This document shows, in pieces, positions 28,294-61,888 of a DNA stretch of 64,000 bases. The notes below the pieces were generated by a model. It saw only the letters and a program-made list of their open reading frames with translations, was not told the DNA's origin and ran no database searches. This DNA is from an uncultured Clostridia bacterium (lineage in GTDB: Bacteria > Bacillota > Clostridia > TANB77 > CAG-508): contig CAKPSH010000006.1 in NCBI GenBank assembly GCA_934183325.1, positions 1,914-65,913 of the forward strand, written 5' to 3'. A program made the position numbers and the translations under genes. How positions within the stretch are numbered: position 1 is the stretch's first letter; every line of letters begins with the position of its first letter.

Positions 28294-28620
28294 TTATAGA
28301 AAATTATCAGTTTTATCATCTTCAATCATTCCTAAAAATTCTTTTTCCATCCATTTTTGATTTCTACTTTTAAATAAAATTACACTATCTTTATCTTCTC
28401 TTATATATTTATCAAGTTCACTTTTTAATTTCATAGCTTGCGATTCTAAAAGCTCTCCTTCAAATACAGAGTTCTGAATATGCACCAAATATTTCTTGCA
28501 TATTTTAAAAACATTTCTCAATATTTTATGTCCTTCTTTATGCTCAAGGTTTATATCATATACTAAAATAACATACATTTTACCACCACATTTTAAATCC
28601 TTCATATTCTTCATCTTCAA
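28294..28620 (-). CDS. cas2: CRISPR-associated endoribonuclease Cas2
   Basis: 108 aa, MYVILVYDI... with a Cas2 fold signature. It overlaps the cas1 3' end. Confidence 0.85.
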   Translation of the reverse strand: MKMKNMKDLKCGGKMYVILVYDINLEHKEGHKILRNVFKICKKYLVHIQNSVFEGELLESQAMKLKSELDKYIREDKDSVILFKSRNQKWMEKEFLGMIEDDKTDNFL

Positions 28621-29572
28621 GTAAATGCTTAATTAATTTATATACTTCTAGTCTTATTAAATATTCATAACTAACTTCTCTCTCTAATTTTTTATGCTTA
28701 ATTTTGGTTTGTAATCTCAAATCAATTTCTCTTGTTATCTCTTTTCTTGCACTCTCTTTGATATATGTAAAATTAAGACCTTCTTCAAAATCTTTCTCAG
28801 TTATTTGTCTCTTGTTAAGCATTGAAAAGATTAATCTATCTGCTATAATTGGTTTAAAAATCTCTGAAATATCTAAGCACAATGAAAATCTTCTTTCAGA
28901 TGGCTCATGTAAATAACTTATTGTTGGATTTAATTGAGTTTTATAAATTTCGCTTAAAACTCTTGTATATATGATTGTATTAACATACGAAATTAATGAA
29001 TTTATTGCATTATCTGGTGGATTTTTTACTCTTTTTTCAAAGGCAATATCCTGATTTATTATAACATTCCAAGAATCATAATAAACCTTTCGGATATTTC
29101 CTTCTATTCCCATTAGCTCCGGAACATCATTACATAGTTTTATTTGAGTTCTTAAAAACTCTATTTCCTTCATATATTCTTTAAGATTTTTTCCTCTATT
29201 ATTATAATAAGTTAAATTTCGATAAATATTATATGAACCAGCATCTATAAATGCTTTTGCAATATTAATTCTTTTCTCTTTATCATTATAATGCTCAACT
29301 TGTTTGATTAATAATTTTCCAGAAACAAGAGACTCTTTTGGATAATATGTTCCTGTGTAAAATCCATAATAGTTAAAGAAATGTATATTTATTCCAAATT
29401 GAGATAAAAAATTTAATAAATTTGTATTAAAATCTAGTTCTGTCATCACATAAATGTCATCTACTCTTTCAACAGGAATACTCTTTTTTGTATTATCTTT
29501 ATATACTATTTCTAATGTATTATCTTTTCTTTGTAGTCTACCATTTTTGTATAAATAATATGATTGTTTCAT
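28580..29572 (-). CDS. cas1: CRISPR-associated integrase Cas1
   Basis: 330 aa, Cas1 I-B type. Confidence 0.9.
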   Translation of the reverse strand: MKQSYYLYKNGRLQRKDNTLEIVYKDNTKKSIPVERVDDIYVMTELDFNTNLLNFLSQFGINIHFFNYYGFYTGTYYPKESLVSGKLLIKQVEHYNDKEKRINIAKAFIDAGSYNIYRNLTYYNNRGKNLKEYMKEIEFLRTQIKLCNDVPELMGIEGNIRKVYYDSWNVIINQDIAFEKRVKNPPDNAINSLISYVNTIIYTRVLSEIYKTQLNPTISYLHEPSERRFSLCLDISEIFKPIIADRLIFSMLNKRQITEKDFEEGLNFTYIKESARKEITREIDLRLQTKIKHKKLEREVSYEYLIRLEVYKLIKHLLEDEEYEGFKMWW

Positions 29573-29599
29573 TATTTAACAATTCCTTTCTATATATTT

Positions 29600-30088
29600 T
29601 TATACATAACACAAATCAAAGTAAGAACATTTTTTACATATTTTTGAGTTAATTATTTTAGGTGGCTTATCTTGTCTTACTATACTTTCAATATTTTCTA
29701 CAACATTTTTTAGTATTTCTCTATCATTATCTTCTAATATAATTTTCCTGTTTTCTCGTATTAATGGAAAATCAATTTCTGCCTTAATGTTTTTTATTCC
29801 TTTTTGTTCCAAATAATATATATAATATTTTAACTGCCATATACCAGCATCTTCAATTGATTTTGTCTTCTTTACTTCATGTAATACTGCTCCATCATTT
29901 ATAAAATCTATATTTATAGTATTATCTATTAAAATTCCTTTCTTTTCTCTTTTATATGTTGTTTCATCTATTAATTTTCCAATTTGTACTAATTCACTAT
30001 TTTGCTCCATATTAATTTGATTTGTAAAATACCATAGTTTTCTTTCACATATAAAGTAATAATAAACCATTATTCCTGTTATATTCAT
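29600..30088 (-). CDS. cas4: Cas4 RecB-like nuclease
   Basis: 162 aa with the C-terminal CKKCSYFDLC cysteine cluster. Confidence 0.8.
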   Translation of the reverse strand: MNITGIMVYYYFICERKLWYFTNQINMEQNSELVQIGKLIDETTYKREKKGILIDNTINIDFINDGAVLHEVKKTKSIEDAGIWQLKYYIYYLEQKGIKNIKAEIDFPLIRENRKIILEDNDREILKNVVENIESIVRQDKPPKIINSKICKKCSYFDLCYV

Positions 30089-30100
30089 TAATTTCTCCTA

Positions 30101-32353
30101 TTATAATTCTCTAGAATTTATTGAATAATCTTCATCTTCCTCTAAAACTAGTCCTTTTTCATTATCATATTTTGTGTCTATAATATACTTTCCTTTTACA
30201 TAAGGACACTCTGTTATAAAACTATGTAGTTTATATTTGTTTTTACTATTAATTGATATAAATAGTTTATCAATTTTCCTTTTTAATTCGTATTTTTTCT
30301 TTGTTTCTCTTTCATTTTCATATTCATCAAATAATTTAAGATTTTCATCATATATAGTCTTTGGAATTACATCAATGTTATCAATATTTCTTAAAATATG
30401 TTGTGCATCCTTTTTGCTTGTATCATAATCTACTATATTATTAAGTACCCTGAATGCATTTTTGAATTTTTTATAAAACTCCGTCTCTTGTAACATTTCT
30501 TTTGAATATAATTTATCAACTAACTCAATTTTTACTTTTTCCTTTAAGATTTCATTATCATATTGCATTAATAGCTCTATACTTTTATCATAAATCTCTT
30601 TATCATATATATATCCAACTCCACTATTATCCTTTATATATATTTTAATATTTGGTACTTTTTCTTTATATTCTCTGCTTCTATAACATCTTCCTAATCT
30701 TTGAAATAAACTATCTAAAGTTGACATTTCTGTATATAAAATATCAAAATCTATATCTAGCGATGCTTCAACAATTTGTGTTGTTATCCATATTCCAACT
30801 TCATTTCTATTCTTAGAAAAGTCTTTTATATTTTTTTCTTTCTCTCCTCTATCTTCTTGTATAAATCTTGAATGTAATAAATTTATATTTGAGACTTCCT
30901 GCTCCTTTAACTTATCATATATTTCAATAGCCTTATTTATTGTATTAACAATTATTAGAACTTTTTTATTTTTTGATTTTTCTTTTATTTCATCTATATC
31001 CTGCTCTATCCCTGAATTTATTAATTGGATTTTATGCCTTACAGTTTCTTTTGTAAATTCACTATATTTAAATTTTATTCCCATCTCTTCTAGTTTTTCT
31101 TTATATATTCTTGGCAGTGTAGCTGTCATAATCATGAATTTTCCATTCAAATTATTTATCATTTGTAAACCTTTTAGAATAATAGCTACTATTTCTGGTG
31201 AATATGCTTGTATTTCATCAATTATAATTTTAGAATAACCTAGTGTTGCATAAATTTTTTCATACCCTCTATATTTAAATACAAAAGGAAAAATCTGATC
31301 TATTGTACATGTAGTTATTTTTTCATATAAATTTCTAGATTGTTCTATTTTTATTAATTCATTTTCTTCATTTTTTTCATCCAAATAATCTACCGCTGTG
31401 GAATGTATTAATCCAACATGTTCATATTCAATTACATCTTTTATTCTATCATAAATTGCATTTATACTTATTCTTAACGGCAATGTAAAAAATGTTTTAT
31501 CATTATTACTCCATAATAATGCTCCTTCTGTTTTTCCAATTCCTGTAGATCCAATTACTATTACATTTTCATTTTGATTTTCTTTTGCAAATTGTTGCAA
31601 ATCATTCGGTTCAAATTTCTGCTTCTTCATAAATTTTTCTACGAATTCTGAAATTTCATCATTTGTTTCATCTTCAACTGATATCCAGGCTGAACTACAA
31701 TGGTCTAATCTATGGAGTAATCCTTTCATTATACAAAAGTCTTTATATTCTTCATCAAATTCAGTTATTCTGGCCTGTCCTTCTACCATTCCTAAATAAG
31801 TAGTTTTTAATTCTGGTACTTGTATTTGTAAATCTTTTTCTATTTTTTCAATGTTTGGCTCTATGTCTTTTTTTATTATTTTTTCTAATAAATCTCTATC
31901 AACATGAATTGTGTTATTCCTCTCATGATGATAATAAATAGCTTGATATACTAATTTCCTTTCTGTTTTTGTCATCTCATAATTTTTATATGGAACAAAC
32001 ATTGGAGATATTTGTTCATGTTTTATTTCTTCATTATTAAATTCAGTAATAATAAGTTGTTCTCCTATTGCTTTTCTTATCACATTTTGAAATCCAGAAT
32101 ACGCTTTTCCTACATCATGATATTTACATATTATTTCCATTAATGTCCAGAATCTTTCTTCAGGAATATCTACTATCTGTATGATTTTCTTACCATATTT
32201 TTTCTTTAAAATTTCTAAATTTTCTAATAATTTATCTGTATGCTCTTTTATTGTTTCTATCGGATTTGATTTTGCATAATATTTATAATCCATTCTGAAT
32301 CCTTTCACTATAAAAGTAAATATTGTCGCCATCTTCATCTTGCAGCACTTCAT
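30101..32353 (-). CDS. cas3: Cas3 HD nuclease / SF2 helicase
   Basis: It has an N-terminal HD motif (YHDVGK), a helicase motif I (GSTGIGKTE) and a DEIQ box. The true start may be an internal Met, because the listed N-terminus overlaps cas5. Confidence 0.9.
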   Translation of the reverse strand: MKCCKMKMATIFTFIVKGFRMDYKYYAKSNPIETIKEHTDKLLENLEILKKKYGKKIIQIVDIPEERFWTLMEIICKYHDVGKAYSGFQNVIRKAIGEQLIITEFNNEEIKHEQISPMFVPYKNYEMTKTERKLVYQAIYYHHERNNTIHVDRDLLEKIIKKDIEPNIEKIEKDLQIQVPELKTTYLGMVEGQARITEFDEEYKDFCIMKGLLHRLDHCSSAWISVEDETNDEISEFVEKFMKKQKFEPNDLQQFAKENQNENVIVIGSTGIGKTEGALLWSNNDKTFFTLPLRISINAIYDRIKDVIEYEHVGLIHSTAVDYLDEKNEENELIKIEQSRNLYEKITTCTIDQIFPFVFKYRGYEKIYATLGYSKIIIDEIQAYSPEIVAIILKGLQMINNLNGKFMIMTATLPRIYKEKLEEMGIKFKYSEFTKETVRHKIQLINSGIEQDIDEIKEKSKNKKVLIIVNTINKAIEIYDKLKEQEVSNINLLHSRFIQEDRGEKEKNIKDFSKNRNEVGIWITTQIVEASLDIDFDILYTEMSTLDSLFQRLGRCYRSREYKEKVPNIKIYIKDNSGVGYIYDKEIYDKSIELLMQYDNEILKEKVKIELVDKLYSKEMLQETEFYKKFKNAFRVLNNIVDYDTSKKDAQHILRNIDNIDVIPKTIYDENLKLFDEYENERETKKKYELKRKIDKLFISINSKNKYKLHSFITECPYVKGKYIIDTKYDNEKGLVLEEDEDYSINSREL

Positions 32354-32948
32354 CTAAATTTTTATTTGTATGCTGCTCCACAAATTTTACATTTACCTTA
32401 TTCCATTTTCTGATATCATTTTGTATTGTATATGTTGTATTCAATCTATAATTTATTCCATCAATTTTTTCATCTATCCATTCTGGAATATATGCATTGT
32501 TTTTTATTTCGGCATCTTCAACTTCTTCTACATTGTCCAAAATTTTTATTTCATCTACTCTTACAAGATCCTCATTTCTTCCTAGAGTAAATGTTTCTAT
32601 TCCATTTATTATATTTTGATATATTTTATTTATTGTTTCATCTTTTGCTTCTATATGTATAATTAAATGTACATCTAATAACTGATGAACATTTCTTGGC
32701 ATTGATGTTACTTTGTCTTTTCCTTTATACATTCTTAAATTCTGATAATTACTAAAAATTCCTTCATAACTTCCTTGTACAGATACATTCATTGGGAAAT
32801 ATTCACCAGGTTTTGCTTGAAGTATTTTATGAAACATTCCTATTATCGTTGAATATGGAGGTAATGGATATGTTTCTGCCACTTTTGTTGCAAATGGCTT
32901 TTTATAACAAGCTGTTTCTTGATATAGTCTTAGTTTTAAAATTTTCAT
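32283..32948 (-). CDS. cas5: Cas5 (subtype I-B)
   Basis: 221 aa, sitting in the cas7-cas3 position of the I-B operon. Confidence 0.75.
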   Translation of the reverse strand: MKILKLRLYQETACYKKPFATKVAETYPLPPYSTIIGMFHKILQAKPGEYFPMNVSVQGSYEGIFSNYQNLRMYKGKDKVTSMPRNVHQLLDVHLIIHIEAKDETINKIYQNIINGIETFTLGRNEDLVRVDEIKILDNVEEVEDAEIKNNAYIPEWIDEKIDGINYRLNTTYTIQNDIRKWNKVNVKFVEQHTNKNLDEVLQDEDGDNIYFYSERIQNGL

Positions 32949-32965
32949 TTATACTAATCCTTTCT

Positions 32966-33874
32966 TTAGGCTTTATAATACTCATTTACTTTTGCTTTTA
33001 ATTCTTTGAAAAATTCTTCTATATTTGTTGTTTTTCCTTTAAAAATTTCTTCTATTTCTGTTTCATTTTTAAATGTATTTTTTAGCATACCTACTTTTGT
33101 ATCATCATAAATTGATTTATCTCCAATTGTTAATGTTGTTGTATCTTTTAGCATTTCTGTATCAATACTGAATTCACCATTTTTTCCATTTAATTTTATC
33201 CTTCCTAAAAAGAAAGGTGAATTTATATCATATATTCCGCCTATTACAAATACAGGACTTAAATTTTCTTCTCTTCCCCTTATTTCTCTATTTAATACTT
33301 TTATAATATCTAATAATTGAGTTACTCTTTCTGTTTTCTCTTCATTTGAAATCTCTATGTTTTCATCTTTTCCAATCTTTTCCAAGTCAATTGTTATTGT
33401 ATATGTATAATAGCTTAAATGTTGTTCTACATTGGCAAGATTTGGAAACTCGTTAATTCTATCTGCTAATCCTTTATTGTTTAAAAAATCCATATCACTT
33501 TTATATTCTTCCAACGAAATTGCATTACTTAATCTAACAGCTGCACTTCTTATATTTGAGCCATCGTTCTTAGCTGTTTTCATATATCCAAATAAATCCA
33601 TTTCTTGTGAATCTTTAATTGTTAATTCATCATCAAACTGTATTGTACCTTTTTCTTTATTTACTACCTCTAAATTCCAATTAAATAATTTATTTCCAAT
33701 TCTTACTATGTCATATCTTAATGCTTGTCTAGAAGCATATGTATAAACACTTCCATCACCTCTTGTTAGTTTTTTTAATTCAGATATATTTCCTATTCCT
33801 TCTCCATAATTTAAACTTTGACCTTTAAATACTAGAGTAATTGATAATCCTTTTTTATTTTTTATATTATCCAT
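32966..33874 (-). CDS. cas7: Cas7 (Csh2, subtype I-B)
   Basis: 302 aa. Its position and size fit the I-B backbone subunit. Confidence 0.75.
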   Translation of the reverse strand: MDNIKNKKGLSITLVFKGQSLNYGEGIGNISELKKLTRGDGSVYTYASRQALRYDIVRIGNKLFNWNLEVVNKEKGTIQFDDELTIKDSQEMDLFGYMKTAKNDGSNIRSAAVRLSNAISLEEYKSDMDFLNNKGLADRINEFPNLANVEQHLSYYTYTITIDLEKIGKDENIEISNEEKTERVTQLLDIIKVLNREIRGREENLSPVFVIGGIYDINSPFFLGRIKLNGKNGEFSIDTEMLKDTTTLTIGDKSIYDDTKVGMLKNTFKNETEIEEIFKGKTTNIEEFFKELKAKVNEYYKA

Positions 33875-35692
33875 TTATTTTTCCTCCTCTTTTTTCTCAT
33901 ATTTGTTAGATATTAATCCTGATAAGAAACTATGGCCTATTGATTCAAAATCTAATCCTGTCGTTTGCATAGTTTCTATAAAAATTGGTGATACATCTTT
34001 TCCCATTGCAATATGTAATCTTATTACAATATCCATAAATTCTTTTTTATTTCCTGCTTTGATACTATTTAGCATTTTATATGTATACCCATCTAATTTA
34101 TTATCTTCATTTTTTCTTTTAAGCTCCTCATGAATCTCTACTCCCAAATTATATATTGCATATAATTTATTATCATTTTTCTTTATATCTTCCACTTGCC
34201 TTCCCTCCTTTTTTAATACATTTAATATCATTCGTATTTGTGTTGCCAAAAATGAATTATATCCATTTTTCTTTTCGACTTTTTTTATTTCATCTCTTAA
34301 TCTATCATTAATTATGTATTTAATATCTTTGTTTTTCATAATATAATCAACTATTTGTAGCCTGTATCTATAATCCCATATTTTTACTAACGTTTTTTGT
34401 GCATATTCTGTAAAGAAAATTGAAATATATCTTTTTATATTAAAATATTCAATTCTACTATATGCTCCATATTCTGCTTCAATTTCAACAACAAAAATGT
34501 TCTCTAACTGCCACATACTAACTTGTTTGTCTTGCTCTACTATATCTAATATTAGTTCTGAATATGGATTTTCACTATTGTTTTCATATCGTGATTTATT
34601 ACTAAAGTTAAGGTTGGTTCTATATAGTTTCTCTACACTAGTATCATAATTTACAAAACTTAATAGTTGTTTTTCTTTATACTCACCATTTTCTTTGATT
34701 GTTTTTGTTATATTGGTCATTCCCGCTGGTATACAAAATAAAATTAATTTACATATATCGCATATTGGCATTTTTACATTTTGATTCCAAAAGAAATTCT
34801 TTGCATTATCACTACTTATTGCAAGTGGCACAAAATTTCCTTCTGAATAGTTAGTTGTTAATCCTATTTCATTTTCACATAAACAACAATTTTGTATAAC
34901 TTTTTCTTTTAAATATTTTTGTATATCCTCTAAAGTTTTTGACTTATCTATATATTCTTTTTCAATCTTCGCATAAATTTTCTCCATATCCTGTGTTATA
35001 TTTTTATTTTCCTTTGCATTTTGAATATATTCTTTTATTTGTTCTATGTCATATTTATTTTGTATAATTTCATTAATAAATCCAGCTTCTACAATGTTGC
35101 TAATATAGTCTTTGTACATTAGTTCTTGTTGTTCATTATATGATAATGCTGTTTTTACTACATTTAAAAAACTTGGTTGTCCATAGTATTTGCTACTTAA
35201 TATGCTTTTAAATAGATTTAGTGTTAATCTTTTATTTATATTCTCCTTTTTCAAGTTATAAATAATTTTTTCACTTATTTCTATTATTTCTTGCTTTGTA
35301 GATAATTTATCTAATAAATCATAATTTTCTTTTATTTCATTATAAGTCTCTTCATCAAACTTTTTTATCTTATCCATTTGTTTTTTTACTATTTCTTTTA
35401 TATATTTAATATTTGTTTTTATTCTTTCTTTCCTTTGTTTTTCTTCATCTTTATTTTCAAGATTTTTTTCTATATTATTTTCTAAATAATCAAATGAATT
35501 TTTAGTTCGATTTTCTACACTTTCTGCCACATTATATTTTTTATAAAAATAATTAAAATAATATTTATGAAAATTCCTTAGGTCTTCTGTATCAAATTCA
35601 ATATAATTATTTCTTTTTAATGCAAATTCATCTTCATTTTCTTCAAGTATTCTTAAGAATCCAACAATTCCGTGCATTATAAAACCAATCAT
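33875..35692 (-). CDS. cas8b: Cas8b (Csh1) large subunit
   Basis: 605 aa, sitting between cas6 and cas7. Confidence 0.65.
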   Translation of the reverse strand: MIGFIMHGIVGFLRILEENEDEFALKRNNYIEFDTEDLRNFHKYYFNYFYKKYNVAESVENRTKNSFDYLENNIEKNLENKDEEKQRKERIKTNIKYIKEIVKKQMDKIKKFDEETYNEIKENYDLLDKLSTKQEIIEISEKIIYNLKKENINKRLTLNLFKSILSSKYYGQPSFLNVVKTALSYNEQQELMYKDYISNIVEAGFINEIIQNKYDIEQIKEYIQNAKENKNITQDMEKIYAKIEKEYIDKSKTLEDIQKYLKEKVIQNCCLCENEIGLTTNYSEGNFVPLAISSDNAKNFFWNQNVKMPICDICKLILFCIPAGMTNITKTIKENGEYKEKQLLSFVNYDTSVEKLYRTNLNFSNKSRYENNSENPYSELILDIVEQDKQVSMWQLENIFVVEIEAEYGAYSRIEYFNIKRYISIFFTEYAQKTLVKIWDYRYRLQIVDYIMKNKDIKYIINDRLRDEIKKVEKKNGYNSFLATQIRMILNVLKKEGRQVEDIKKNDNKLYAIYNLGVEIHEELKRKNEDNKLDGYTYKMLNSIKAGNKKEFMDIVIRLHIAMGKDVSPIFIETMQTTGLDFESIGHSFLSGLISNKYEKKEEEK

Positions 35693-35728
35693 TCAAATAT
35701 ACTTTTATTTTCAACTTAACACCTCCCT

Positions 35729-36451
35729 CTATACAACTTGAAACATCCCGAAACCGGCACTATGTTTACTACCTATTCCAGCTCTGTACAGATAATTTAA
35801 TAGTTCTATATCTCCTTCTAATTCAAATATTCCAGTCGAACATTCTATCTTCTTTTCATAGAATTTTATAATTACTTTTTTTGCTTTTATTGGTACTAGT
35901 TTTAATCCATCTACTATTTCTGGTTTAATCTCTGTTATTTTTAATTGTTCTTTAATATTTATTCTTAATATTTCTTCAAATTTTTCATTTCCAAATGAAT
36001 AATAGTAATCTTTATTTTCCTTTCTTTCTCGCACACATAAAGGACTTTGAAATTTTATTAAGATCTTATTTTCTTTTATTTCTTTTTCTGGTATAAGTCC
36101 GATATCTCTTAAAGTCCAAGAATTTTGATTGATTGAAAATTTTTTATATTTTTGATGATTAAATGAATTGTACAAAATAATTGCTGTTTCATAATTTTCT
36201 ATTGTCATATTCATTTCAAAGTTTTTATCATCTAATATTATTTCTTGACTATTAATTTTAGGTTGCCTAAAAAAGACAGAAAAAGCATAAGGTTTTATAA
36301 TATTATCTTTCTGGTTATAGTATTTTTGAAATACTTTTTCACTATATTCAGATAATGATAATTTTATAAAACTAATTATGCTTCTTCTATAATCTATTGG
36401 TATTTTTTTATTTTCTAATGTAAAATATAATTTTATTCTCATATTTTTCAC
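35729..36451 (-). CDS. cas6: Cas6 crRNA endoribonuclease
   Basis: 240 aa with a C-terminal glycine-rich loop, GIGSKHSAGFGMF. Confidence 0.75.
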   Translation of the reverse strand: MKNMRIKLYFTLENKKIPIDYRRSIISFIKLSLSEYSEKVFQKYYNQKDNIIKPYAFSVFFRQPKINSQEIILDDKNFEMNMTIENYETAIILYNSFNHQKYKKFSINQNSWTLRDIGLIPEKEIKENKILIKFQSPLCVRERKENKDYYYSFGNEKFEEILRINIKEQLKITEIKPEIVDGLKLVPIKAKKVIIKFYEKKIECSTGIFELEGDIELLNYLYRAGIGSKHSAGFGMFQVV

Positions 36452-38081: not shown

Positions 38082-38390
38082 ATGGAATTTAATAAAGATA
38101 AAATTCAAGATTTAATGAATGAGTGGATAATTTTTAGAGATGAGGAACTTTGTAAATTAACTAGGGAAGATATGAAACATTCTCTAGATTTTGATACTTT
38201 TTATAATTTAGTTTTAAAAAATGTTTCTAAAAATAGTGAGAAATTTATGATTAAAAATTTGGACAAGTTTTATGAGCAAATTATGGATTTTACTGGTTAT
38301 TATAATGATAAATATTATAAGGCTGGTTTTGGTGATTGCTTGAATTTAGTTATTATGAGTCTTGGAGGTAATGGTATTGAAACTAAATAG
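38082..38390 (+). CDS. Hypothetical protein. It may be one gene disrupted by a frameshift, together with 38362..38652.
   Basis: It is 102 aa with a good RBS (AAGGAGGA). The next ORF overlaps it by 29 nt in another frame. Confidence 0.3.
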   Translation: MEFNKDKIQDLMNEWIIFRDEELCKLTREDMKHSLDFDTFYNLVLKNVSKNSEKFMIKNLDKFYEQIMDFTGYYNDKYYKAGFGDCLNLVIMSLGGNGIETK

Positions 38391-38652
38391 ATATGGTAAA
38401 TTAGCTAAAAGGTATTTGGAAGAATATAAGCCTTTTAAATTTCAACAACTTACTATGGATGGAAGTATTATGGATTATTTATTAGAATTTGAACAACATT
38501 TAAATGGTTATGCTAATTTGATTGAAATTGAACTTAAGCAAAAGTATCCTATGACAGATGATAAAAATAGTTTTATGGAGCAAGTTAAGTATTTGAATAT
38601 GATTCAGGAGATGGTGGATGCGTTTGTGAAAGAGGAGGTTAAATTGGTATAG
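38362..38652 (+). CDS. Hypothetical protein
   Basis: It is 96 aa and is followed by the strong terminator gccgaga-ttaa-ttctcggc at 38655-38685. Confidence 0.3.
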   Translation: MEVMVLKLNRYGKLAKRYLEEYKPFKFQQLTMDGSIMDYLLEFEQHLNGYANLIEIELKQKYPMTDDKNSFMEQVKYLNMIQEMVDAFVKEEVKLV

Positions 38653-38683: not shown

Positions 38684-40156
38684 TTATTCATTTTCAATTT
38701 TTACTATATTTTCAAATTCTTCAATGGCTTTTTCTGCAACATATTGCAAATCTTTAGAAATTATCTGTCCATGTACTATTTCATTTCTTTGATCTTTTAT
38801 TTTGCTCAACTTTTTGTTTAATTGATTTTTAGTAATTGGCAATTGTTCATATTTATAAATCTCTGCATATATTTTATATATTGTTGGTGGATTATCCTTT
38901 ATAACATCATCTTTCTTAGCTTGTTCAAAATTTTTCTTACTTATATACTCTTTTAGAAAGTAGTCTTCATATTCTACAATCCCTCTAAAAAATTTTTCTA
39001 TTTGGCTATCTTCTAAATATTTTTTTAGTATCTTTTTTGAAAAATAATAAGTAAAATTTTCTAATGCTATATTTATCATAATAATTGCATTTTTATAATC
39101 CTTAATTAAATAATAATCTTTTGCATAATTAACTGCCAATTCCCATATATTATTTTCACTACTATTTAGTTCTTTATTTATACCTTTAAGTTCATCCTCT
39201 TTTAATCTTAATCTATTATTTCCGCTTGATGACAAACTCATTGAAATACTTAATGGAATATTTTTTATTTCAACATTTCCAGCTAACACTTTGGTTTTAA
39301 ATCTAAATATCATATTTTCATTTATCTCTGGTAACCAATATTTACCTGTTGAAATAATGTATTTCTTTAAAAAATAGTTATATACATTAATAGCTTCATT
39401 TAATGGTCTATAAACTTCATTAATTGTTTTGTTAACTTTAATTAATTCATTTCCATTTATATATTTTTCAATTGTCAATGTTACTATAGAACGATTCACT
39501 ATTCCATACTTATCTTTTTCTGTGTATATATTATCTCCTATAATAAAATTGGATTCTTGAGCTCTTATTGTTTCTGCTTTTATATAACACTTTGTCCCTT
39601 TATAATTAAATCCTATTTCATTTTCTTCATCTAGTATTAAATGATATGGTATTTCTAGTGTAACAATTGTTTTTAAATCTCCTCTTATTGCACTATTATA
39701 TATATTTTTTGTTTCATCTATTTTTTCTTTCAAATTGTTATTCCAACTTATATCATAATTAGAATCAATAAAATTTAATAATGTTTTAGCTTCTTCTAGC
39801 TTTCTAGAATTATTCGAATTTAGATATATCATTATCTTTTCTCTAGCCAACATTTGTTTTGTAGTACATTCGTTTATCATGCTATCTACATTATTGTATT
39901 TAGTCTTTATTTCTAATGACTTTTCAAAAAACTTTTCTGAACTACTATATTCATTAGCTTCAAAATATAAAGCTCCCATTTGTCTATAAATAATATAAAT
40001 ATTACTCATTATGAGTGTTCTACACTCTATTTTTAATTTCTCATATACTTCACATGCTTCTATACCTATTTTAACTCTTTCATCATGTTCTATCCCTTTA
40101 TTTCCGATAATGCTTGATATATATATTATTCTATTTATTATTTCCTGATTATTCAT
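38684..40156 (-). CDS. Large helical-repeat protein with a C-terminal HEPN-like Rx4H motif. It is a putative abortive-infection or RNase effector.
   Basis: 490 aa. The N-terminus has TPR-like repeats. The C-terminal ...KIKDQRNEIVHGQ matches the HEPN R[N]xxxH signature. Confidence 0.4.
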   Translation of the reverse strand: MNNQEIINRIIYISSIIGNKGIEHDERVKIGIEACEVYEKLKIECRTLIMSNIYIIYRQMGALYFEANEYSSSEKFFEKSLEIKTKYNNVDSMINECTTKQMLAREKIMIYLNSNNSRKLEEAKTLLNFIDSNYDISWNNNLKEKIDETKNIYNSAIRGDLKTIVTLEIPYHLILDEENEIGFNYKGTKCYIKAETIRAQESNFIIGDNIYTEKDKYGIVNRSIVTLTIEKYINGNELIKVNKTINEVYRPLNEAINVYNYFLKKYIISTGKYWLPEINENMIFRFKTKVLAGNVEIKNIPLSISMSLSSSGNNRLRLKEDELKGINKELNSSENNIWELAVNYAKDYYLIKDYKNAIIMINIALENFTYYFSKKILKKYLEDSQIEKFFRGIVEYEDYFLKEYISKKNFEQAKKDDVIKDNPPTIYKIYAEIYKYEQLPITKNQLNKKLSKIKDQRNEIVHGQIISKDLQYVAEKAIEEFENIVKIENE

Positions 40157-40301: not shown

Positions 40302-40919
40302 TTAAGTTTTTTCTATTAAATAATCATTTAATATTTCTCTCAAAATTGTTTGAACTTTTCTTCTTAATCCATCTACTTCTTCTATGATCTTTTCATTAAA
40401 AATCCCTTGAGAAATTTGTATATCGACACCTACTTCGTGTTCATATTGTCCCTTTTTATTTTTGGAAACAAGTACATTCATATTTTTTTGTTTTAAATCT
40501 TCTTGGATATCTTTGTATTCTTCAAAATCTTTAGATTCAATGCAATAATGAAACACTTCATTTCTAAAATTTAAATATTTTGCATTTATAGTATTGGGCT
40601 TATTCCTCGGATTTTCCAATTCATCTGCTATTTCTAATAATATTCTTTTTACCAATACATTATTTTCCCATTTTGCCATTATTCCTGTAAATCTATCAGA
40701 TCTCTTTATTGTTCCTAAAATTTTAAGAGTTTCTTTCAAGTGTGCTGTTAATAATTTAAAGAAATAAATCTGAGCTTCATAACTTGCATCACCTTTCACT
40801 TTATTAAATAAAGTGGTATTTATTTGTAAATCATTGTATGCTCTTGTTATTAAAAAAATAGCAAAACCTTCATAATCATCTTTATAATATTTTTCTCTAT
40901 CAATCATTATTTCATTCAT
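40302..40919 (-). CDS. HEPN-motif protein, translationally coupled to the QueC-like gene
   Basis: 205 aa with an NFRNEVFHY Rx4H motif. Its start overlaps the stop of the upstream QueC-like gene by 8 nt. Confidence 0.45.
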   Translation of the reverse strand: MNEIMIDREKYYKDDYEGFAIFLITRAYNDLQINTTLFNKVKGDASYEAQIYFFKLLTAHLKETLKILGTIKRSDRFTGIMAKWENNVLVKRILLEIADELENPRNKPNTINAKYLNFRNEVFHYCIESKDFEEYKDIQEDLKQKNMNVLVSKNKKGQYEHEVGVDIQISQGIFNEKIIEEVDGLRRKVQTILREILNDYLIEKT

Positions 40920-42213
40920 CTTTATTCCATCCTTTAATTTGTTTAAAATATTCTTCTAATTCGCAATTGAATTTTTGCAACATTTCATCTATTTTTTCCT
41001 GCCAATCCGCATCTTCATAATATTCTTTTTTTAAATCTAAATAATTATAAATAGTTCCTTCTTTGATATGTTTGTAATATAATTTATAATATTCTAATAG
41101 TGACCTTTTTTCGTTAAATTTATATATAGAAGCTTTTTCATCTTTTTCAATATTTTTTTGCTTAGATATACTTTTTTCATATTTTCTAATGTTTTGAAAA
41201 TCACCTAAGTTTTCTGGCAATAAATACTCACAATCTTCTCTATTATTATATATCATGCCAATTTGCCTTAAAATACAAGCAATGCAAACTCCACAATGAA
41301 AATTTCCTTTTTTCTTATTTCTAAAATGTCTGATTCCTGGATTCTTTGAACATGTCCTTGTAAACTTTTTTATATATTGGTCATATTCTTTTGGAATTAT
41401 TTTAATTATATCTGCTTTAGTCTTATATTTAAATGGATTAATTATTTTTATATTAATTTCTAATTTTTCTAAAATTTTATTTATTAAAAATAAAGTTTTT
41501 TGATTTGTTGTTTTGGTAACTCTTCTACTAAAATTAAATTTAGGATTTAAGGACATTATTCCATTTTCATATATTTTCACTTCATTTATTCTATAATAAT
41601 CTGCATAAATTAAGCTACTTGCAATAAATATTAATGATCTAGTTCTTTCTGTATAGTGTTCTTTCTCTTCCAAACCTATTTTTTTAATCACTACATGTTT
41701 GTTATTGTCATTTTTTATTAAATTCTCATAAATATCATTTGAATTATTTACTTCTATAGGATTAGTTTCAAATGTTACAAATATGGTTTTGTTATTTTTT
41801 TCTACTACACTTCCCGACATAGAATCTAATCCACCTGATAGAACACAAATAGAGTTGTATTCTATCCCATCACAAATACTTTTTTGCTCTCTACCTATTT
41901 CCTTTATCTCTTTTTGGTATTCAAAATTAACATTCCATTTTTCGCCATTTGTCATATAATTTAATAGAATTTCTATATCCTGTTTTACTTCATTAAATTT
42001 TTCTATATTATTTACCGGAATAGTTATATTTAATTTTTGCTTGTTATTTACATCTTCATCTCTAGGAGTGAAAAAATCCGTATAACAAATGTATGATATC
42101 ATATCAAAAAAATCCAATACAATTGTATTAGTATACTCATTAATATCTAATAAATTTTTATCATCATAATGTAATAAATACGGATTTTTATCTTTAAATT
42201 TACTTTTATTCAT
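40912..42213 (-). CDS. QueC-like PP-loop ATP pyrophosphatase (7-cyano-7-deazaguanine synthase-like) with a ~115-aa N-terminal extension
   Basis: 433 aa. It has the SGGLDS PP-loop (CVLSGGLDSMSGS) and a C-terminal CGVCIACILRQ zinc-binding Cys cluster, as in QueC. It overlaps both neighbouring genes. Confidence 0.7.
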   Translation of the reverse strand: MNKSKFKDKNPYLLHYDDKNLLDINEYTNTIVLDFFDMISYICYTDFFTPRDEDVNNKQKLNITIPVNNIEKFNEVKQDIEILLNYMTNGEKWNVNFEYQKEIKEIGREQKSICDGIEYNSICVLSGGLDSMSGSVVEKNNKTIFVTFETNPIEVNNSNDIYENLIKNDNNKHVVIKKIGLEEKEHYTERTRSLIFIASSLIYADYYRINEVKIYENGIMSLNPKFNFSRRVTKTTNQKTLFLINKILEKLEINIKIINPFKYKTKADIIKIIPKEYDQYIKKFTRTCSKNPGIRHFRNKKKGNFHCGVCIACILRQIGMIYNNREDCEYLLPENLGDFQNIRKYEKSISKQKNIEKDEKASIYKFNEKRSLLEYYKLYYKHIKEGTIYNYLDLKKEYYEDADWQEKIDEMLQKFNCELEEYFKQIKGWNKDE

Positions 42214-42889
42214 ATTCTACATCTCCACGCAATTTCTTAATAATATTCGAGAAAGCATTATTTACTTTACTTGCAAAAGTATCTTCTTGTTCAAGTATTT
42301 CATCTGTAAATTCTATTTCTTCAAATTCGACTTGAATTATTGGAACAACTTTTTCTTCCATATAATAATTAATACTATTGGAATACTCTTCACTATCGAA
42401 TTTTTCTAATGAATTAAGTGCATCTTCGTATGTAAATTGCTTATAAATATTAGAAATTATATTTTTTACATATTGTGTGATAAATCTTATAATATTTAGA
42501 GATTTATCAAATATATTATTTTTTTCTAATGTTTCTTTTAAAGATGTTTTTAGCAATTCATTGTTAGATATTCCTAAATAATCACATACTTTCTCTTTGA
42601 GCTCTATATTTGAATATCTAGATAATCCTCCAAGTCCTATTGAAGAAAGTGTGCCTGAATTTACAGCCTTGGAAATTTTAATTATATTTTTTATACTATT
42701 TGTACATTCTTTAGAATATAAATTTTCATTTAATGTTGCTTTTATTTTTGATTGTCCTTTTTTTGGGAAAAGTAATTTTGCTAGCAATTCTCCTATTCCT
42801 GCCCCCTGTTCATTTACTTTTCCATCTTCTATTCCCTCTTTTATGATCTTATCAGATCTTTTATAACTATTTCTTGTTGAAGATCCCAT
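42206..42889 (-). CDS. Hypothetical soluble protein, the partner of the QueC-like enzyme
   Basis: 227 aa with no known motif. It is translationally coupled to the QueC-like gene through an ATGA-type overlap. Confidence 0.4.
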   Translation of the reverse strand: MGSSTRNSYKRSDKIIKEGIEDGKVNEQGAGIGELLAKLLFPKKGQSKIKATLNENLYSKECTNSIKNIIKISKAVNSGTLSSIGLGGLSRYSNIELKEKVCDYLGISNNELLKTSLKETLEKNNIFDKSLNIIRFITQYVKNIISNIYKQFTYEDALNSLEKFDSEEYSNSINYYMEEKVVPIIQVEFEEIEFTDEILEQEDTFASKVNNAFSNIIKKLRGDVEYE

Positions 42890-42907
42890 TTTATCACCTT
42901 TTTCATC

Positions 42908-43726
42908 TTATATATTATTTTTTATTTTTCCTACCTCTATTTTTTCATCTTCTTTTACTTTAAATTCTACTGTTCCTATGTACCCTCCTGGTTCAAAAAT
43001 GTTTGTTGCGGTATATTGTACTTGTACTTCTTGCTTGTACCAATTTGATAGCACATCTTGATAATAAATAATAATACTCATTTCATATGGTATGTTTGAA
43101 CTCTTCAATGAAAAAATTTTTCTTATTACTTTTTCTTCTCCTTTTTCCATTACTTCTATAGAATTTTTTCCTAATAATCTCTCTGTAGTATTATTTATTA
43201 TATCTGATTTAAAATCCACTTTTAAATTTTTAATATTATTCAAGCCAATATTTTTCAAATATATATTTAATTTATATGGTATTCCCTTTTCAATATCAGT
43301 AATTATTAGTTCATCTAATTCCCCTGTTCCACTTTCTACTGTATCAAAAGAATATTTTAAAGTAGGCATATTCTGTAATCTCATATTTTCTTTATCTCTT
43401 TTTATACTATCTTCATTATTCTTTTTTATTTGTACAATAGTCACAATTACTAATACTACAGCTCCAATAATTGCAGAAATAACTCCTGACGAATAACTAG
43501 CTAAAAAGGATAACCAATTTTGAGAATTTACATTAACACTCCACCCTAATAATGTTGGTATATTATATCTATCTAGATAATATAGCGATATAGGAATAAT
43601 ACTAACAAAAAAAAGTAATATATATAAGCTTTTTTCTAAATCGTCCTTACATCTCTTATAATTAATATAACAAAAAACTCCCATTCCTAATAGTATTAAA
43701 ACTACTATTATTACATTTAATATCAT
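42908..43726 (-). CDS. Membrane protein with 3 N-terminal TM helices and a ~170-aa C-terminal soluble domain. It is a candidate effector or sensor.
   Basis: 272 aa. Its hydrophobic segments include VIIVVLILLGMGVFCYI, LYILLFFVSIIPISLYYL and GVISAIIGAVVLVIVTIVQI. Confidence 0.5.
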   Translation of the reverse strand: MILNVIIVVLILLGMGVFCYINYKRCKDDLEKSLYILLFFVSIIPISLYYLDRYNIPTLLGWSVNVNSQNWLSFLASYSSGVISAIIGAVVLVIVTIVQIKKNNEDSIKRDKENMRLQNMPTLKYSFDTVESGTGELDELIITDIEKGIPYKLNIYLKNIGLNNIKNLKVDFKSDIINNTTERLLGKNSIEVMEKGEEKVIRKIFSLKSSNIPYEMSIIIYYQDVLSNWYKQEVQVQYTATNIFEPGGYIGTVEFKVKEDEKIEVGKIKNNI

Positions 43727-43924
43727 AATTATCGCCTCTTTTTATATTATATTATATTTTTTTGCAAACTTTGTCGTACTCTGTCGTTTATTATCAAAAA
43801 AGCAAAATAATTCTGTAATTACTATTTAATCACATCCTATTTTGCTTTTCTTTTGTAATTTTATATTTCTCTCTATACTAAAAATATTTAATATATAATA
43901 TTTATTGATATTTTTTTCTTTATT

Positions 43925-45040
43925 CTATTTGTTATCTATATATTTTTTCTTTAATATACTAGTAATAACATCTCTAGTTATTCTATTTATTTCTCTAGCA
44001 TTTGTAAATTTATCTGCATTGCTTAATAGTAATTCATTTGTTTTTTCTTCTTTTAAAATAGCTATTTGTTCAGCATCTAAATATTTTAAATACTCCTCAT
44101 AATTTTTTTCTATAATTATCTTACAAGCATTAATATCCAATGCATTAAATTTCACAAAGCCATCAAATCTATTATAAATAGGTAAACCTAGATTATTTTT
44201 TATATCTTCTATATTTTCATAGTTTGAAGTACAAATTATGATTGAATTTTTTAATTCTACTGAATAATTTTTATCAACAAATATGCCTTCATCAAAAAGT
44301 TGATAAAATGCACTAAAAAACACTTTGTTCGCTTTATCAAATTCATCTAATAAAATAACATTTGTTTCTCTATCTAATAAATCTTTTGAAAAGCTACTTT
44401 CGGAATGTTTTGTTCCAAATACATAATTTGCAAAGTCTTCATTTTGAAACATTGAAAATTGTTTTCTAAATAATTCTCCTCCCATTTTTTGAGAAATAAA
44501 CTTAGCTGTTTCAGTTTTTCCTACACCACTTGGTCCATAAAACATTAAAATTAATGGTTTATTATTAAAGAAATCAAATGTTGCAGAATATAGTAAATTT
44601 ATAAGTTCCTCTTTTGCACATTCTTGACCAATTATATTTTTTGAAAATTTCTCATTAATTTCTTTAACACATTTCTCATCAATCTTTTTATATTCATATA
44701 TTTTTTCTAAGCAATTTTCTGTTTTTATCAATCTATTATATACTTGTATTGGTGGATTTTGTAAGTAAACATTTTCAATATCAAATCTATTTAAAAAAGC
44801 TTCAATATTATATAATACCCATTCATTTACCATTGAATATTCATCAGATAAAATTACTAAATTCTCTATTTTTCCTATATCATTAGATGTTTTAGGACTT
44901 ACGCCATCTATCTCTATTGTTTTTTCTTCTTTTTGCACTTTTCTTACTAATTCAGAAAAGCTAAACTGTCCACTTAATTTATATTCTTCTTCAAATCCAT
45001 TTAAAGGTCCCCAAAATATATATTTATTCATCTGTAACAC
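43925..45040 (-). CDS. AAA+ ATPase (ClpA/B-D2-like AAA_2 type)
   Basis: 371 aa with Walker A (FYGPSGVGKTETAKFIS), Walker B (VILLDEFDKA) and sensor-1 (IIICTSNY) motifs. Confidence 0.75.
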   Translation of the reverse strand: MLQMNKYIFWGPLNGFEEEYKLSGQFSFSELVRKVQKEEKTIEIDGVSPKTSNDIGKIENLVILSDEYSMVNEWVLYNIEAFLNRFDIENVYLQNPPIQVYNRLIKTENCLEKIYEYKKIDEKCVKEINEKFSKNIIGQECAKEELINLLYSATFDFFNNKPLILMFYGPSGVGKTETAKFISQKMGGELFRKQFSMFQNEDFANYVFGTKHSESSFSKDLLDRETNVILLDEFDKANKVFFSAFYQLFDEGIFVDKNYSVELKNSIIICTSNYENIEDIKNNLGLPIYNRFDGFVKFNALDINACKIIIEKNYEEYLKYLDAEQIAILKEEKTNELLLSNADKFTNAREINRITRDVITSILKKKYIDNK

Positions 45041-45776
45041 CTGCCAATATTACATCATAAACATCTAATGCACCTTCATCACTCTGTGCTTTATTACCTA
45101 GAATTTCACTTGCAGTTATAGCATTCTCTACCATTTTTATTTCATTTTCTAACTCCATTTTATTCTTTTGTATTTTTCCGACTTTAACAGCATATACATC
45201 TAAACTCATTTTTAAAATATCCGATAATTTATAATTATTTCTAAACGTATTAGTATTAAATCTCAATACATCCATTTGATTTCCATTTTTTGAAATTACT
45301 TCTGTATATCCTTTTACACTATTTAAAACATTATCTAGGTTAGTTAGATTCATCCCCTGATAGTTATTAGCTCCATTAATTAAATCCATATATGGTGTGT
45401 ATAGTCTGTAATATGCCATTGAATTAGGATAAACTTCTATTTTTATATTTTTAAATACTTTTACCTTTCTATCTCTATTTGCTTTTTTAATATAATCAGT
45501 AAGTACCGTATTACTTAAAGTAGTAGTATTGGCTTTACTTAAATCTCCATCCACTTTACCTCCTGCTCCAAAATTCGAATTAAATACTAACTTTTTTATA
45601 ATCGAAGCAACTTTATTTTGAGAATTTTCATCTAGAATATCTCCTAGCTCAGCTGATATTTTTCCTTCAATTGTTCCATTAAATTTTGTTATATTTTCAG
45701 TTACTTTTTTCCCTCCATCTTTTAGAATTATATAATCCAGTGCTGATTCTTCATCAAAATATACTATCTTCTGCAT
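45024..45776 (-). CDS. Hypothetical protein, coupled to the AAA ATPase
   Basis: 250 aa. It overlaps the ATPase start by 17 nt. No motif was recognised. Confidence 0.4.
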   Translation of the reverse strand: MQKIVYFDEESALDYIILKDGGKKVTENITKFNGTIEGKISAELGDILDENSQNKVASIIKKLVFNSNFGAGGKVDGDLSKANTTTLSNTVLTDYIKKANRDRKVKVFKNIKIEVYPNSMAYYRLYTPYMDLINGANNYQGMNLTNLDNVLNSVKGYTEVISKNGNQMDVLRFNTNTFRNNYKLSDILKMSLDVYAVKVGKIQKNKMELENEIKMVENAITASEILGNKAQSDEGALDVYDVILAGVTDE

Positions 45777-45807: not shown

Positions 45808-47781
45808 TTATTCATATCTATATTCTTCTCCTTCTTCTGCAACTTTTAATTCATAAGTTTCTTCTTCATCTATTGAATAAGTAATTTCATCCTTCTGATT
45901 TAATCTGCTTTTTAAATATTTTGCTAAATTCTTATCTGTACAATAAATATAACATCCTTTTTGTCCTCTTGTCATTAATGTCCTATAAGTATTTTTTATA
46001 ATTTCATCAGCAACTTTCATAGCATTATTAAAGTCTTGTTGCGCCATTTTATATATTCCTTTTATTGATTGATCGGTCTTGGCTCTTTCTGTAACATCTG
46101 TAACTATTTTGCCATTTTCATATCTTAAATCATTTCCAATAATTACTCCAACATAATCAAATTCTAATCCTTGAGCAGTATGTATACATCCAATTTCATT
46201 AACAGATTCAGCATCAATTGCCCATGTCTGACTATTTCCTAAATTCCAACTCATTGCAAAATCATATTCTGGAATTGTTATATCAAATACATCTGATTTA
46301 TTTTTTCCATCTTTTATCCAATCCCAACAATATCCAGCAAGCAGCCTTGCTTTATTGTTTATTTTATTTTTTTCGAAAATTATATTTCTTACTTCGTTAG
46401 GTGTATCACAAATTTTAATATCGTAATCCAAATCAAATCCATCACTATTAGCAGTCTTTCTTATTTCTAATACATCATCAAGCCAAGCAATATATCCATC
46501 AGACCCATTGCATCTAAATTGCGATTCTAATTCCATTATTTCTGATTCTGCATTTGCTTGTCTAATATATTTTTGTATTTCTTCAACACTTCCTATATCT
46601 TTTAAAGTTACTCTTTGTGACTCATCTATAAAGAATATTGAAAATTTGGATGCTTTAATAATTTCCTTTATTTGATTCTCACCTAAGTTCTGGAACATTC
46701 CAGACTTTGCATTTAACCTATGAGCTTCATCAACAATTAATACATCAAACTCATTCTCAACAGATTCAACAAATGAACCTGAGCCTTTAAATAAATTATT
46801 TATTCTTGTTCTTCTAAAATCACCACTTAATTTCGTTGCATATACATTTCTTGGTGCTGCATTCTTTGTTACATATGAACAAACCATATTTTCATTTGTT
46901 AGTTTTACTAAAAGATTAATAGCTAATACTGATTTTCCAGTGCCTGGTCCACCTTTTACAATTAAAGCTCTTTTATTTCCGTCTCTATATGATTTTCTAG
47001 CCATATCTAAAGCTGTTTCATATACAAGTTTTTGGTCATCTATCATTACAAATTCGTCATTACCTTTTAACATGCTAGATAACGCATCTTGTAGTGACTT
47101 AGAAGGTCTTATTTTTCCATTTTCAATCATATATAGTGTTTCTTTATCATCACCATATTTAATATACTTATTTATAAAATCTCTTAATTTTTCTACATCA
47201 CCTTTAATAAATGCAGGCGCTTTTTCTAAATAATATTTATAATTATCTGATAGTAATGTTGGTGGTGTTACAGTTAAATAATTATGAAGATATGCACATG
47301 GATGTAAATCTATTTTTCTATCTTGTACAGTCTCATTATAATCTTCTATTGTTGTTGCATATGACCATGCTTGATATGATGGATGTGCAACTTCTCTTAA
47401 AGCATGCCCTGTGTATGTTTGTACTATTCCATCTTTTCCATTAACTATATTAGCTTCCGTCCATTGTTTTAATTCAACAATAATAGCTGTATTTTTAAAT
47501 TTTCCGTCCTTACCTGTAATTATAAAGTCTACTCTTTTAGATGTATTTGGAATTTTAAATTCAATAGCTATTCCTACATTTCCAGGTATATTATTATCTA
47601 TTAAAACTTTCATCATATATTGCATAGAATTATTCCATGCTTTTCTTTCACTCTGCGATGTGTGATATCCCATTTTCTCATAAAATTTTTTATCTATATT
47701 CTCTTCAATTCTATCTTGCACAACATCTTCTACAAATAATTGCTTTGTTGCTTCATACACTATCATAATAATTGCCCCCAC
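45808..47781 (-). CDS. DUF2075/Schlafen-like protein: an N-terminal PD-(D/E)xK nuclease-like domain plus a P-loop helicase-like ATPase
   Basis: 657 aa with a KRVDFIITGKDGK...IIVELKQW (D..ELK) nuclease motif, Walker A (VKGGPGTGKS) and Walker B (VLIVDEAHRL) motifs. Confidence 0.65.
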   Translation of the reverse strand: MGAIIMIVYEATKQLFVEDVVQDRIEENIDKKFYEKMGYHTSQSERKAWNNSMQYMMKVLIDNNIPGNVGIAIEFKIPNTSKRVDFIITGKDGKFKNTAIIVELKQWTEANIVNGKDGIVQTYTGHALREVAHPSYQAWSYATTIEDYNETVQDRKIDLHPCAYLHNYLTVTPPTLLSDNYKYYLEKAPAFIKGDVEKLRDFINKYIKYGDDKETLYMIENGKIRPSKSLQDALSSMLKGNDEFVMIDDQKLVYETALDMARKSYRDGNKRALIVKGGPGTGKSVLAINLLVKLTNENMVCSYVTKNAAPRNVYATKLSGDFRRTRINNLFKGSGSFVESVENEFDVLIVDEAHRLNAKSGMFQNLGENQIKEIIKASKFSIFFIDESQRVTLKDIGSVEEIQKYIRQANAESEIMELESQFRCNGSDGYIAWLDDVLEIRKTANSDGFDLDYDIKICDTPNEVRNIIFEKNKINNKARLLAGYCWDWIKDGKNKSDVFDITIPEYDFAMSWNLGNSQTWAIDAESVNEIGCIHTAQGLEFDYVGVIIGNDLRYENGKIVTDVTERAKTDQSIKGIYKMAQQDFNNAMKVADEIIKNTYRTLMTRGQKGCYIYCTDKNLAKYLKSRLNQKDEITYSIDEEETYELKVAEEGEEYRYE

Positions 47782-61815: not shown

Positions 61816-61888
61816 AATAAAAAATCTCCTTTCTTGTAAAATTAGAGTTTCCAAAAAGGAGATTTTTTCCATTGTATTTTTCTCTTTT

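Follow-up and report, generated by a model that had tools for sequence, protein, structure and literature searches.

Qat systems are anti-phage systems whose minimal defence core consists of two proteins, QatB and QatC (2026 structural papers: PMC13279940, PMC13376578, PMC13639016). QatC is a PP-loop enzyme of the QueC family. In PP-loop enzymes a first substrate is adenylated and then attacked by a second nucleophile; in QatC, as in Cap9 of the type IV cyclic oligonucleotide-based anti-phage signalling system (CBASS), this nucleophile is the N-terminal amine of a partner protein (PMC13376578, PMC13279940). For QatC the partner is QatB, a globular domain of ten helices without structural homologues, whose N-terminal tail enters the QatC active site and whose MGTS N-terminus, Gly2 in particular, is essential (PMC13279940, PMC13376578, PMC13639016). 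QatB and QatC alone can defend; QatA, a KAP NTPase, and QatD, a TatD nuclease, are accessory (PMC13279940, PMC13434339). Here we analysed a stretch of 64,000 nucleotides from an uncultured Clostridia bacterium (contig CAKPSH010000006.1 of assembly GCA_934183325.1; hereafter the window), which carries a cassette of four minus-strand genes that we call TM, B, C and X (Table 1). The core of this cassette is known, since its enzyme C is a QatC and its partner B a QatB-position protein with the N-terminal glycine motif. New is the set of partners, namely a HEPN-like protein (X) instead of the DNase and ATPase partners and, in one lineage, a membrane protein (TM).

A first-pass annotation of the window, made from the letters alone, had described a tightly packed four-gene operon around a QueC-like PP-loop enzyme, lacking TGT, TatD and CD-NTase partners, as a candidate for an undescribed defence system. 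A defence-type operon around a QueC-family enzyme without these three partners was indeed found. The coordinates, the overlaps of 8 nt between B and C and between C and X, and the gap of 145 nt between X and the next open reading frame (ORF), which encodes 490 aa, were correct as well; the gap between TM and B is 18 nt, not 19. All four ORFs recur in the order TM, B, C, X in independent metagenome and genome contigs and are therefore not due to chance.

C matched the QatC model of PADLOC (E=4.5e-38) and the crystallised QatC chains 9vlk_A (E=3e-15) and 9zee_B (E=9e-14). The NCBIfam QatC model NF041925 was matched with an E value of 1e-44 and 153 bits, which is below its equivalog cut-off of 280 bits and is a caveat on the assignment. 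The PP-loop SGGLDS (residues 126-131) and the zinc site (C288 together with C307-G-V-C310-I-A-C313) are both present, as annotated, and so are the further QatC motifs RTRSLIF, ENG, T-K-T-T, P-x4-TK and C...CGxCxxC, all of which are kept across the clade. In an alignment of 24 C proteins the conserved forms were SGGLD[SA], RTRSxxF, ENG, [TS]-x-T-T-[HNS]-[PQ], P-x4-TK and C...CGxCxxC. Motifs by which QatC can be told from QueC and Cap9 are listed in PMC13329287 (Libby et al.) and PMC13279940 (Gao et al.). Residues T233-K-T235 of C form the Thr-x-Thr that replaces the Tyr/Asp with which QueC and Cap9 bind 7-carboxy-7-deazaguanine (CDG), with the caveat that the HP of the QatC TxT-HP motif is NQ in the subclade of the window. 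In place of the QueC substrate motifs YxQxHxxE, VPxRN and YPDC, C has the QatC-type motifs. Based on these matches and on the retention of all QatC motifs checked, C is, by its sequence, a divergent member of the QatC family. The earlier label of a QueC-like enzyme was thus right about the family and can be narrowed down to QatC. Among cluster representatives, C had about 108 relatives of roughly 430 aa at 30% identity or higher, and the first canonical QatC followed only at 27%.

The first-pass annotation had considered that the operon might prove to be an already named variant, such as Qat or a type IV CBASS remnant. This was borne out in part, as the core is that of Qat; a type IV CBASS remnant, a Dpd system and a metabolic QueC were all rejected on motifs and neighbours. 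With type IV CBASS (Wassarman et al. 2025) the cassette shares a QueC-family enzyme, a presumed protein substrate with an N-terminal MGxS and, presumably, the chemistry of ATP-dependent N-terminal conjugation. However, Cap9 is minimal (~185 aa) and has kept the CDG-binding Tyr/Asp, whereas C has 433 aa and Thr-x-Thr, and neither a CD-NTase nor Cap10/TGT nor a cyclic-nucleotide effector is found among the neighbours in the window.

Three database proteins were noticed in passing. In P0113 and P0115 (642-644 aa) a QueC/QatC-like domain (PF06508) occurs together with a TIR domain (PF13676), which would make them a fused QatC-TIR architecture. P0092 (342 aa) matches 43% of C, at the C-terminal end, and 77% of X, with 69% identity each; it lies on a contig of 2 kb and represents either a fusion of C and X or a gene that is frameshifted or wrongly called.

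The N-terminus of B is MGSSTRN, a heptapeptide that is invariant in 20 homologues. All 22 B-slot proteins of the three non-canonical architectures described below begin with M-G-[ST]-S-[TV]-R at the start codon (ATG, GTG or TTG), and each of the 22 occupies the QatB slot of its locus. The canonical QatB proteins of loci L030 and L031 and of E. coli begin with MGTT or MGTS. Gly2 of B would be exposed once the methionine is removed. AlphaFold models B confidently, with a predicted local distance difference test score (pLDDT) of 90.6, as an all-helical protein of 11 helices.

A sequence link between B and QatB was sought by phmmer, profile searches, PADLOC, Pfam, NCBIfam and a chain of hhalign comparisons, and only weak links were obtained. 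The window B did not match QatB in PADLOC, NCBIfam or PDB (phmmer and profile search), and nine B variants gave weak links only in PADLOC, NCBIfam and a copy of Pfam without PF28083 (QatB). By hhalign, the window-type B is related to the B of the DUF4238 class (99.8% probability) and suggestively to that of the TatD class (E=4.6e-5, 69% probability); no B type was significantly linked to canonical QatB, and one TatD-type B matched the NCBIfam QatB model (NF041924) weakly (E=0.021). Fold searches with B returned no QatB chain, the QatB entries (9vll_A, 9zee_A) probably being missing from those libraries. Compared to canonical QatB, the window B is about 45-60 residues shorter, has neither the long disordered tail nor the Pro16/Trp18 positions, and is missed by QatB models. 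B is thus, as judged from its sequence, equivalent to QatB by its position and by the functionally decisive motif, while sequence or fold homology to QatB is unproven. The 227-aa protein, which had been called unknown at first pass, can in this way be given a place as the QatB-position protein with an N-terminal glycine motif, and the original statement holds in so far as significant QatB homology was not found.

Gene order was compared around 30 loci. About 13 distinct loci, in which C is 36-100% identical and the flanks are unrelated, have the order B-C-X. A second class consists of B-C-TatD without QatA (L008/L028, from a metagenome-assembled genome (MAG) of Enterocloster bolteae, L026 and L027), in which the third gene is QatD according to PADLOC (2.3e-52). 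In a third class (L017-L022 and L024) B-C is accompanied by a DUF4238 gene, and X is absent. Finally, L030 and L031 have the canonical order QatA(KAP)-QatB-QatC-QatD. The conserved unit around the enzyme of the window is the three genes B-C-X. The four-gene system of the first-pass annotation was rejected as the conserved unit, as TM is limited to the window lineage and a relative whose C is 82% identical.

In a neighbour-joining tree of the C proteins (no bootstrap support), canonical QatABCD formed the outgroup and the B-C-TatD loci were sister to all others. The B-C-X loci L007 and L005 were basal in the remainder, the DUF4238 type was nested within B-C-X, and TM was found at one tip only (the window and L032). 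X is in the QatD slot, because the sister clade B-C-TatD carries QatD as its third gene. The tree therefore indicates that X succeeded QatD in this slot and that, in one subclade, DUF4238 later came in place of X.

The cassette shares with QatABCD (Gao et al. 2020; QatBC core PMC13279940, PMC13376578, PMC13639016) a QatC-family enzyme with N- and C-terminal extensions and QatC-specific active-site motifs, a helical protein of ~220 aa directly upstream of C, translationally coupled and with an M-G-[ST]-S start like QatB, the order B, C, third gene, and the location in a defence island. It differs in that QatA, present in L030 and L031, is found neither in the cassette of the window nor in its flanks, that the third gene is the unrelated HEPN-like X instead of QatD (TatD), and that C scores below the QatC equivalog threshold. 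Moreover, the hosts are low-GC gut Bacillota (gut MAGs, uncultured Clostridia and Bacilli), whereas canonical Qat occurs mainly in Pseudomonadota. The rare qatBCD sub-module (PMC13434339), represented here by L008/L028, L026 and L027, likewise lacks QatA and has the B-C order, its B proteins start with MG[ST]SVRK and its C is in the sister clade; its third gene, however, is a genuine QatD/TatD and that of the window is X.

Some features of the other classes were observed in passing. In L008 a 397-aa helix-turn-helix (MarR-like) protein and a 178-aa protein precede QatB-QatC-QatD, and the B proteins of L008/L028, L026 and L027 are missed by the PADLOC QatB model too. The DUF4238 gene (Pfam 1e-17 to 1e-24; for instance L019:480-1508, minus strand) is divergently transcribed just upstream of B and may be another undescribed partner of QatBC.

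X contains the sequence NFRNEVFHY (R119...H124), as annotated at first pass. No significant match was found for X by sequence and profile searches of Pfam, PADLOC, NCBIfam, PHROGs and PDB, and none to TatD. Its AlphaFold model is confident (pLDDT 87.8; predicted template modelling score 0.82), and the best structural match of this model is a HEPN toxin; the matches include the MNT-HEPN toxin 7ae2, TTHA0636, LAS1, HI0074, Csm6, YutE and SO_3166. Only 46 relatives were found when 1.84 billion representatives were searched exhaustively with a profile. Among 27 aligned relatives, with identities down to ~17%, D30, R119, H124 and Y125 were the only invariant residues besides Met1. The resulting family signature, R-[NDH]-x-x-F-H-Y, is at sequence level what a HEPN active site should look like and conforms to R-x4-6-H.

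Membership of X in a named HEPN family was rejected: Pfam scans of X, of four orthologues and of all 27 family members (0 of 27 in a curated HEPN family), PHROGs and the PDB profile search were without significant match, and one orthologue gave a sub-threshold match to HEPN_Cthe2314 (E=0.03). With HEPN RNase toxins (MNT-HEPN: 8xdj, 7ae2, SO_3166; Abi-type HEPNs) X has in common its small size, its helical fold, the invariant R-x4-H and distant relatives that stand alone in mobile elements. It differs from them by an additional beta-hairpin and a long helix at its C-terminus, by the absence of an MNT-type antitoxin and by being embedded in a QatBC operon. From its motif and from the suggestive fold of its model, X is probably a HEPN-type RNase; of the putative HEPN assignment made earlier, the Rx4H motif proved invariant and a curated family could not be attached.

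Two distant relatives of X are stand-alone genes, one of them in a prophage module of Cohnella, which suggests that X derives from an autonomous toxin-like module. The Cohnella luojiensis relative (L036:5001-5696; 231 aa, R-N-x-x-F-H-Y) is a single gene on the strand opposite to its neighbours, in the manner of a moron gene. These neighbours form a prophage-like replication module, with a VapE-like primase gene on one side of the relative and a DNA methylase / DNA polymerase A block on the other.

Because of the QatC motifs of C, the M-G-[ST]-S start of B, the synteny of B-C-X in varied flanks, the model and motif of X and the setting in a defence island, we consider it reasonably probable that the cluster is a Qat-family anti-phage cassette, in which a QatBC core works with different partners, X would be an RNase arm, and TM was added in the window lineage. 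By analogy with QatC and Cap9, C would use ATP to adenylate a carboxylate first substrate. The N-terminal tail of B would reach the active site of C, where the activated substrate would be passed to the free N-terminal amine of Gly2, and the modified B, or the B-C complex, would confer immunity. X, in the place of the TatD nuclease QatD, would most likely act as an RNase arm that is controlled by modified B or works alongside the B-C complex, and its cutting of RNA would stop phage growth. TM, added at the head of the operon, may be an extra accessory or effector. The first-pass annotation had proposed that a 7-deazaguanine-type moiety is made or attached. Transfer of such a group by C is unlikely, since the CDG-binding residues are replaced and QatC does not use CDG in vitro (PMC13279940, PMC13376578), showing no ATP pyrophosphatase activity on it (PMC13376578).

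Alternatively, the cluster could consist of adjacent independent units that are co-transcribed: a minimal QatBC pair, a stand-alone abortive-infection gene of HEPN type (X) and an unrelated membrane gene. QatBC alone is sufficient against some phages (PMC13279940), and such independence would fit the stand-alone relatives of X, the nested subclade that has B-C without X and the lack of TM at most loci. We nevertheless regard it as unlikely, since X is joined tightly to C (sharing up to 20 nt with it or lying no more than 8 nt away) in all of the B-C-X loci in spite of their divergence and unrelated flanks, stands precisely where the sister clade has QatD, and has close homologues that, where their context was examined, all lie within this cassette.

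A second alternative leaves the cassette intact and changes the role of X, which would be a non-catalytic helical adaptor, sensor or inhibitor of B-C, for instance one that holds the complex inactive until infection; the effector would then be modified B or TM. Canonical QatBC needs no nuclease in order to work (PMC13279940), X is matched by no HEPN profile, and many non-enzymatic helical bundles are found among the structural matches, where unrelated bundles are interleaved with the HEPN proteins at similar Z scores. Set against this are the invariant R-x4-H and the HEPN toxin as best match, and we judge a non-catalytic X to be rather unlikely.

The first-pass annotation had also pointed to the 3-transmembrane (3-TM) protein as a possible effector. 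Three hydrophobic segments were confirmed by Kyte-Doolittle analysis (about residues 1-24, 30-52 and 72-103). A homologue of TM, 75% identical, occurs in the same position in L032/L033, where C is 82% identical and the flanks differ from those of the window, with an MmeI-type restriction-modification gene upstream and TnpV directly downstream. Because the position is the same despite these different flanks, TM is a real travelling companion of B-C-X in the tip lineage. If TM were the killing effector, depolarising the membrane when triggered by B-C, the version in the window would truly have four components; the short distance to B without a terminator in between and the joint move into a second, differently flanked element would agree with this. 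However, TM is missing from L016 (C 79% identical), from L009 and L034 (75%) and from all deeper B-C-X loci, so that it cannot belong to the conserved mechanism, and neither a family nor a fold could be assigned to it. We consider an effector role of this kind quite improbable and class TM as a lineage-specific accessory gene.

The 490-aa protein encoded downstream of X (38684-40156, minus strand), which had been pointed out as a second HEPN/TPR protein, has weak TPR matches near residues 56-86 and a C-terminal KDQRNEIVHG (R-x4-H). It was present only in the window and in the near-identical copies L001-L003, and beside no other cassette, including the TM-B-C-X cassette of L032; it was therefore rejected as a member of the system. 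Its C-terminus and X were likewise rejected as paralogous HEPN domains, as hhalign gave 0.2% probability and thus no relation beyond the motif. It may be a separate, stand-alone defence gene of HEPN type.

A metabolic role of C, as a QueC paralogue that supplies preQ0 or another 7-deazaguanine base to tRNA or DNA modification and has unrelated neighbours, is very improbable: against a match to Pfam QueC of 29 bits stand a score of 17.6 bits with canonical QueC (TIGR00364; cut-off 150.3 bits), the QatC Thr-x-Thr at the CDG-binding Tyr/Asp position, the failure of QatC to complement a queC deletion (PMC13329287), and the absence of QueD, QueE, TGT and DpdA near the cassette.

Pairing of QatC with HEPN in the sense described here was not found in the literature searched, the published Qat papers searched describe no variant, and the QueC-family survey is silent on both HEPN and DUF4238. 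The claim of an undescribed architecture thus stood for the set of partners and fell for the core, which is the named QatBC module. A survey seeded with QatD reported only subsets of the Qat genes (qatABCD 98.1%, qatBCD n=2, few others) and would by its design miss this clade. Only about 34% of the genes in the QatC cluster neighbour qatA or qatD (Libby et al., PMC13329287), so that uncharacterised QatC contexts are to be expected. Qat-type systems are probably under-counted in Bacillota, because this clade is missed by QatB and QatC models and by TatD-seeded surveys.

Against some phages Qat can do without QatA and QatD. In the gut-Bacillota lineage studied here only the pair of B and C has been kept, and the third gene has been exchanged at least twice, from TatD to the HEPN-like X and from X to DUF4238. 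From the side of evolution, these swaps independently support QatBC as the core and a nuclease slot that is modular, and the compact cassettes of three and four genes could be of use in dissecting how modified B is coupled to an effector. It is conceivable, though we hold it doubtful, that QatBC is a portable switch based on N-terminal protein modification with interchangeable outputs (TatD DNase, X, DUF4238, membrane protein), in which B modified at Gly2 directly licenses a HEPN RNase. This would be a HEPN abortive infection controlled by conjugation, a mechanism not known from described systems, and the natural swaps of effector would provide a direct handle on the role of modified QatB.

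The cassette is carried by an element of ~20 kb, bounded by TnpV and a tyrosine integrase (Table 1), in agreement with the integrative island recognised at first pass.

Table 1. Coordinates of the cassette genes and of neighbouring features in the window.
Feature	Position	Strand	Description
TM gene	42908-43726	-	272 aa; N-terminal part with three hydrophobic segments, then a soluble domain (~165 aa) at the C-terminus; head of the transcription unit
B gene	42206-42889	-	227 aa; QatB-position protein, directly upstream of C
C gene	40912-42213	-	433 aa; predicted divergent QatC-family PP-loop ATP pyrophosphatase; signature enzyme of the cassette
X gene	40302-40919	-	205 aa; HEPN-like, R119-x4-H124-Y125
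TM-DolB intergenic region	43727-43924	-	Likely start of the transcription unit (weakly placed); read directly from the sequence
TnpV and 102-aa partner	38082-38652	+	PF14198, 5.6e-11; one end of the defence island; TnpV at 38362-38652
Tyrosine integrase	56743-57942	+	Phage_integrase, 8.7e-29; other end of the defence island
Dodola system, complete	43925-45776	-	DolB PADLOC 4.2e-126, AAA_2 ATPase; DolA 1.6e-58, DUF6414; directly upstream of the cassette
SLFN group-3 / DUF2075-type helicase	45808-47781	-	Pfam 2.7e-105; weak AbiO/Nhi matches

In the intergenic region between DolB and TM, the DolB stop codon is followed by an AT-rich hairpin and a T-run, and the ATG of TM is preceded by TATAAT-like boxes and an AAGAGG ribosome-binding site. 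A promoter consensus scan found 57 sites where 52.8 were expected, no excess in this AT-rich DNA. Promoter and terminator scans are uninformative at ~23% GC, and the placement of the transcription start in this region is weak.

DolA/DolB and the SLFN-type helicase were rejected as Qat partners, as they are separate known systems. The same element further carries MazG-like, NOV_C and NUDIX genes. In L001, an identical contig, MazG-like, DUF3427/NOV_C and NUDIX genes precede the SLFN helicase, corresponding to the region of the window to about 50 kb. In the distant locus L007 a pair of MazG-like and SLFN-helicase genes is likewise located directly upstream of B-C-X. L032 also has a TnpV pair, directly downstream of its TM-B-C-X cassette, so that related mobile elements seem to carry the cassette as cargo.

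Just outside the element, on the TnpV side, the window contains a type I-B CRISPR-Cas system. Its array (26628-27975) has the repeat ATTTACATTCTAATATATTTATATTAATAC with a period of about 65-67 and is adjoined by the cas operon (28580-36451, minus strand), with Cas6, a Cas8b-like CXXC_CXXC protein, Cas7/DevR, Cas5 and Cas3 according to the L001 annotation. Further along the window, a tetrahydrofolate (THF) riboswitch (61889-61983, minus strand; Rfam RF01831, 60.2 bits) is located upstream of an energy-coupling factor (ECF) transporter operon consisting of an S component (61288-61872), an ABC ATPase (60510-61283) and a CbiQ-type T component (59916-60494).

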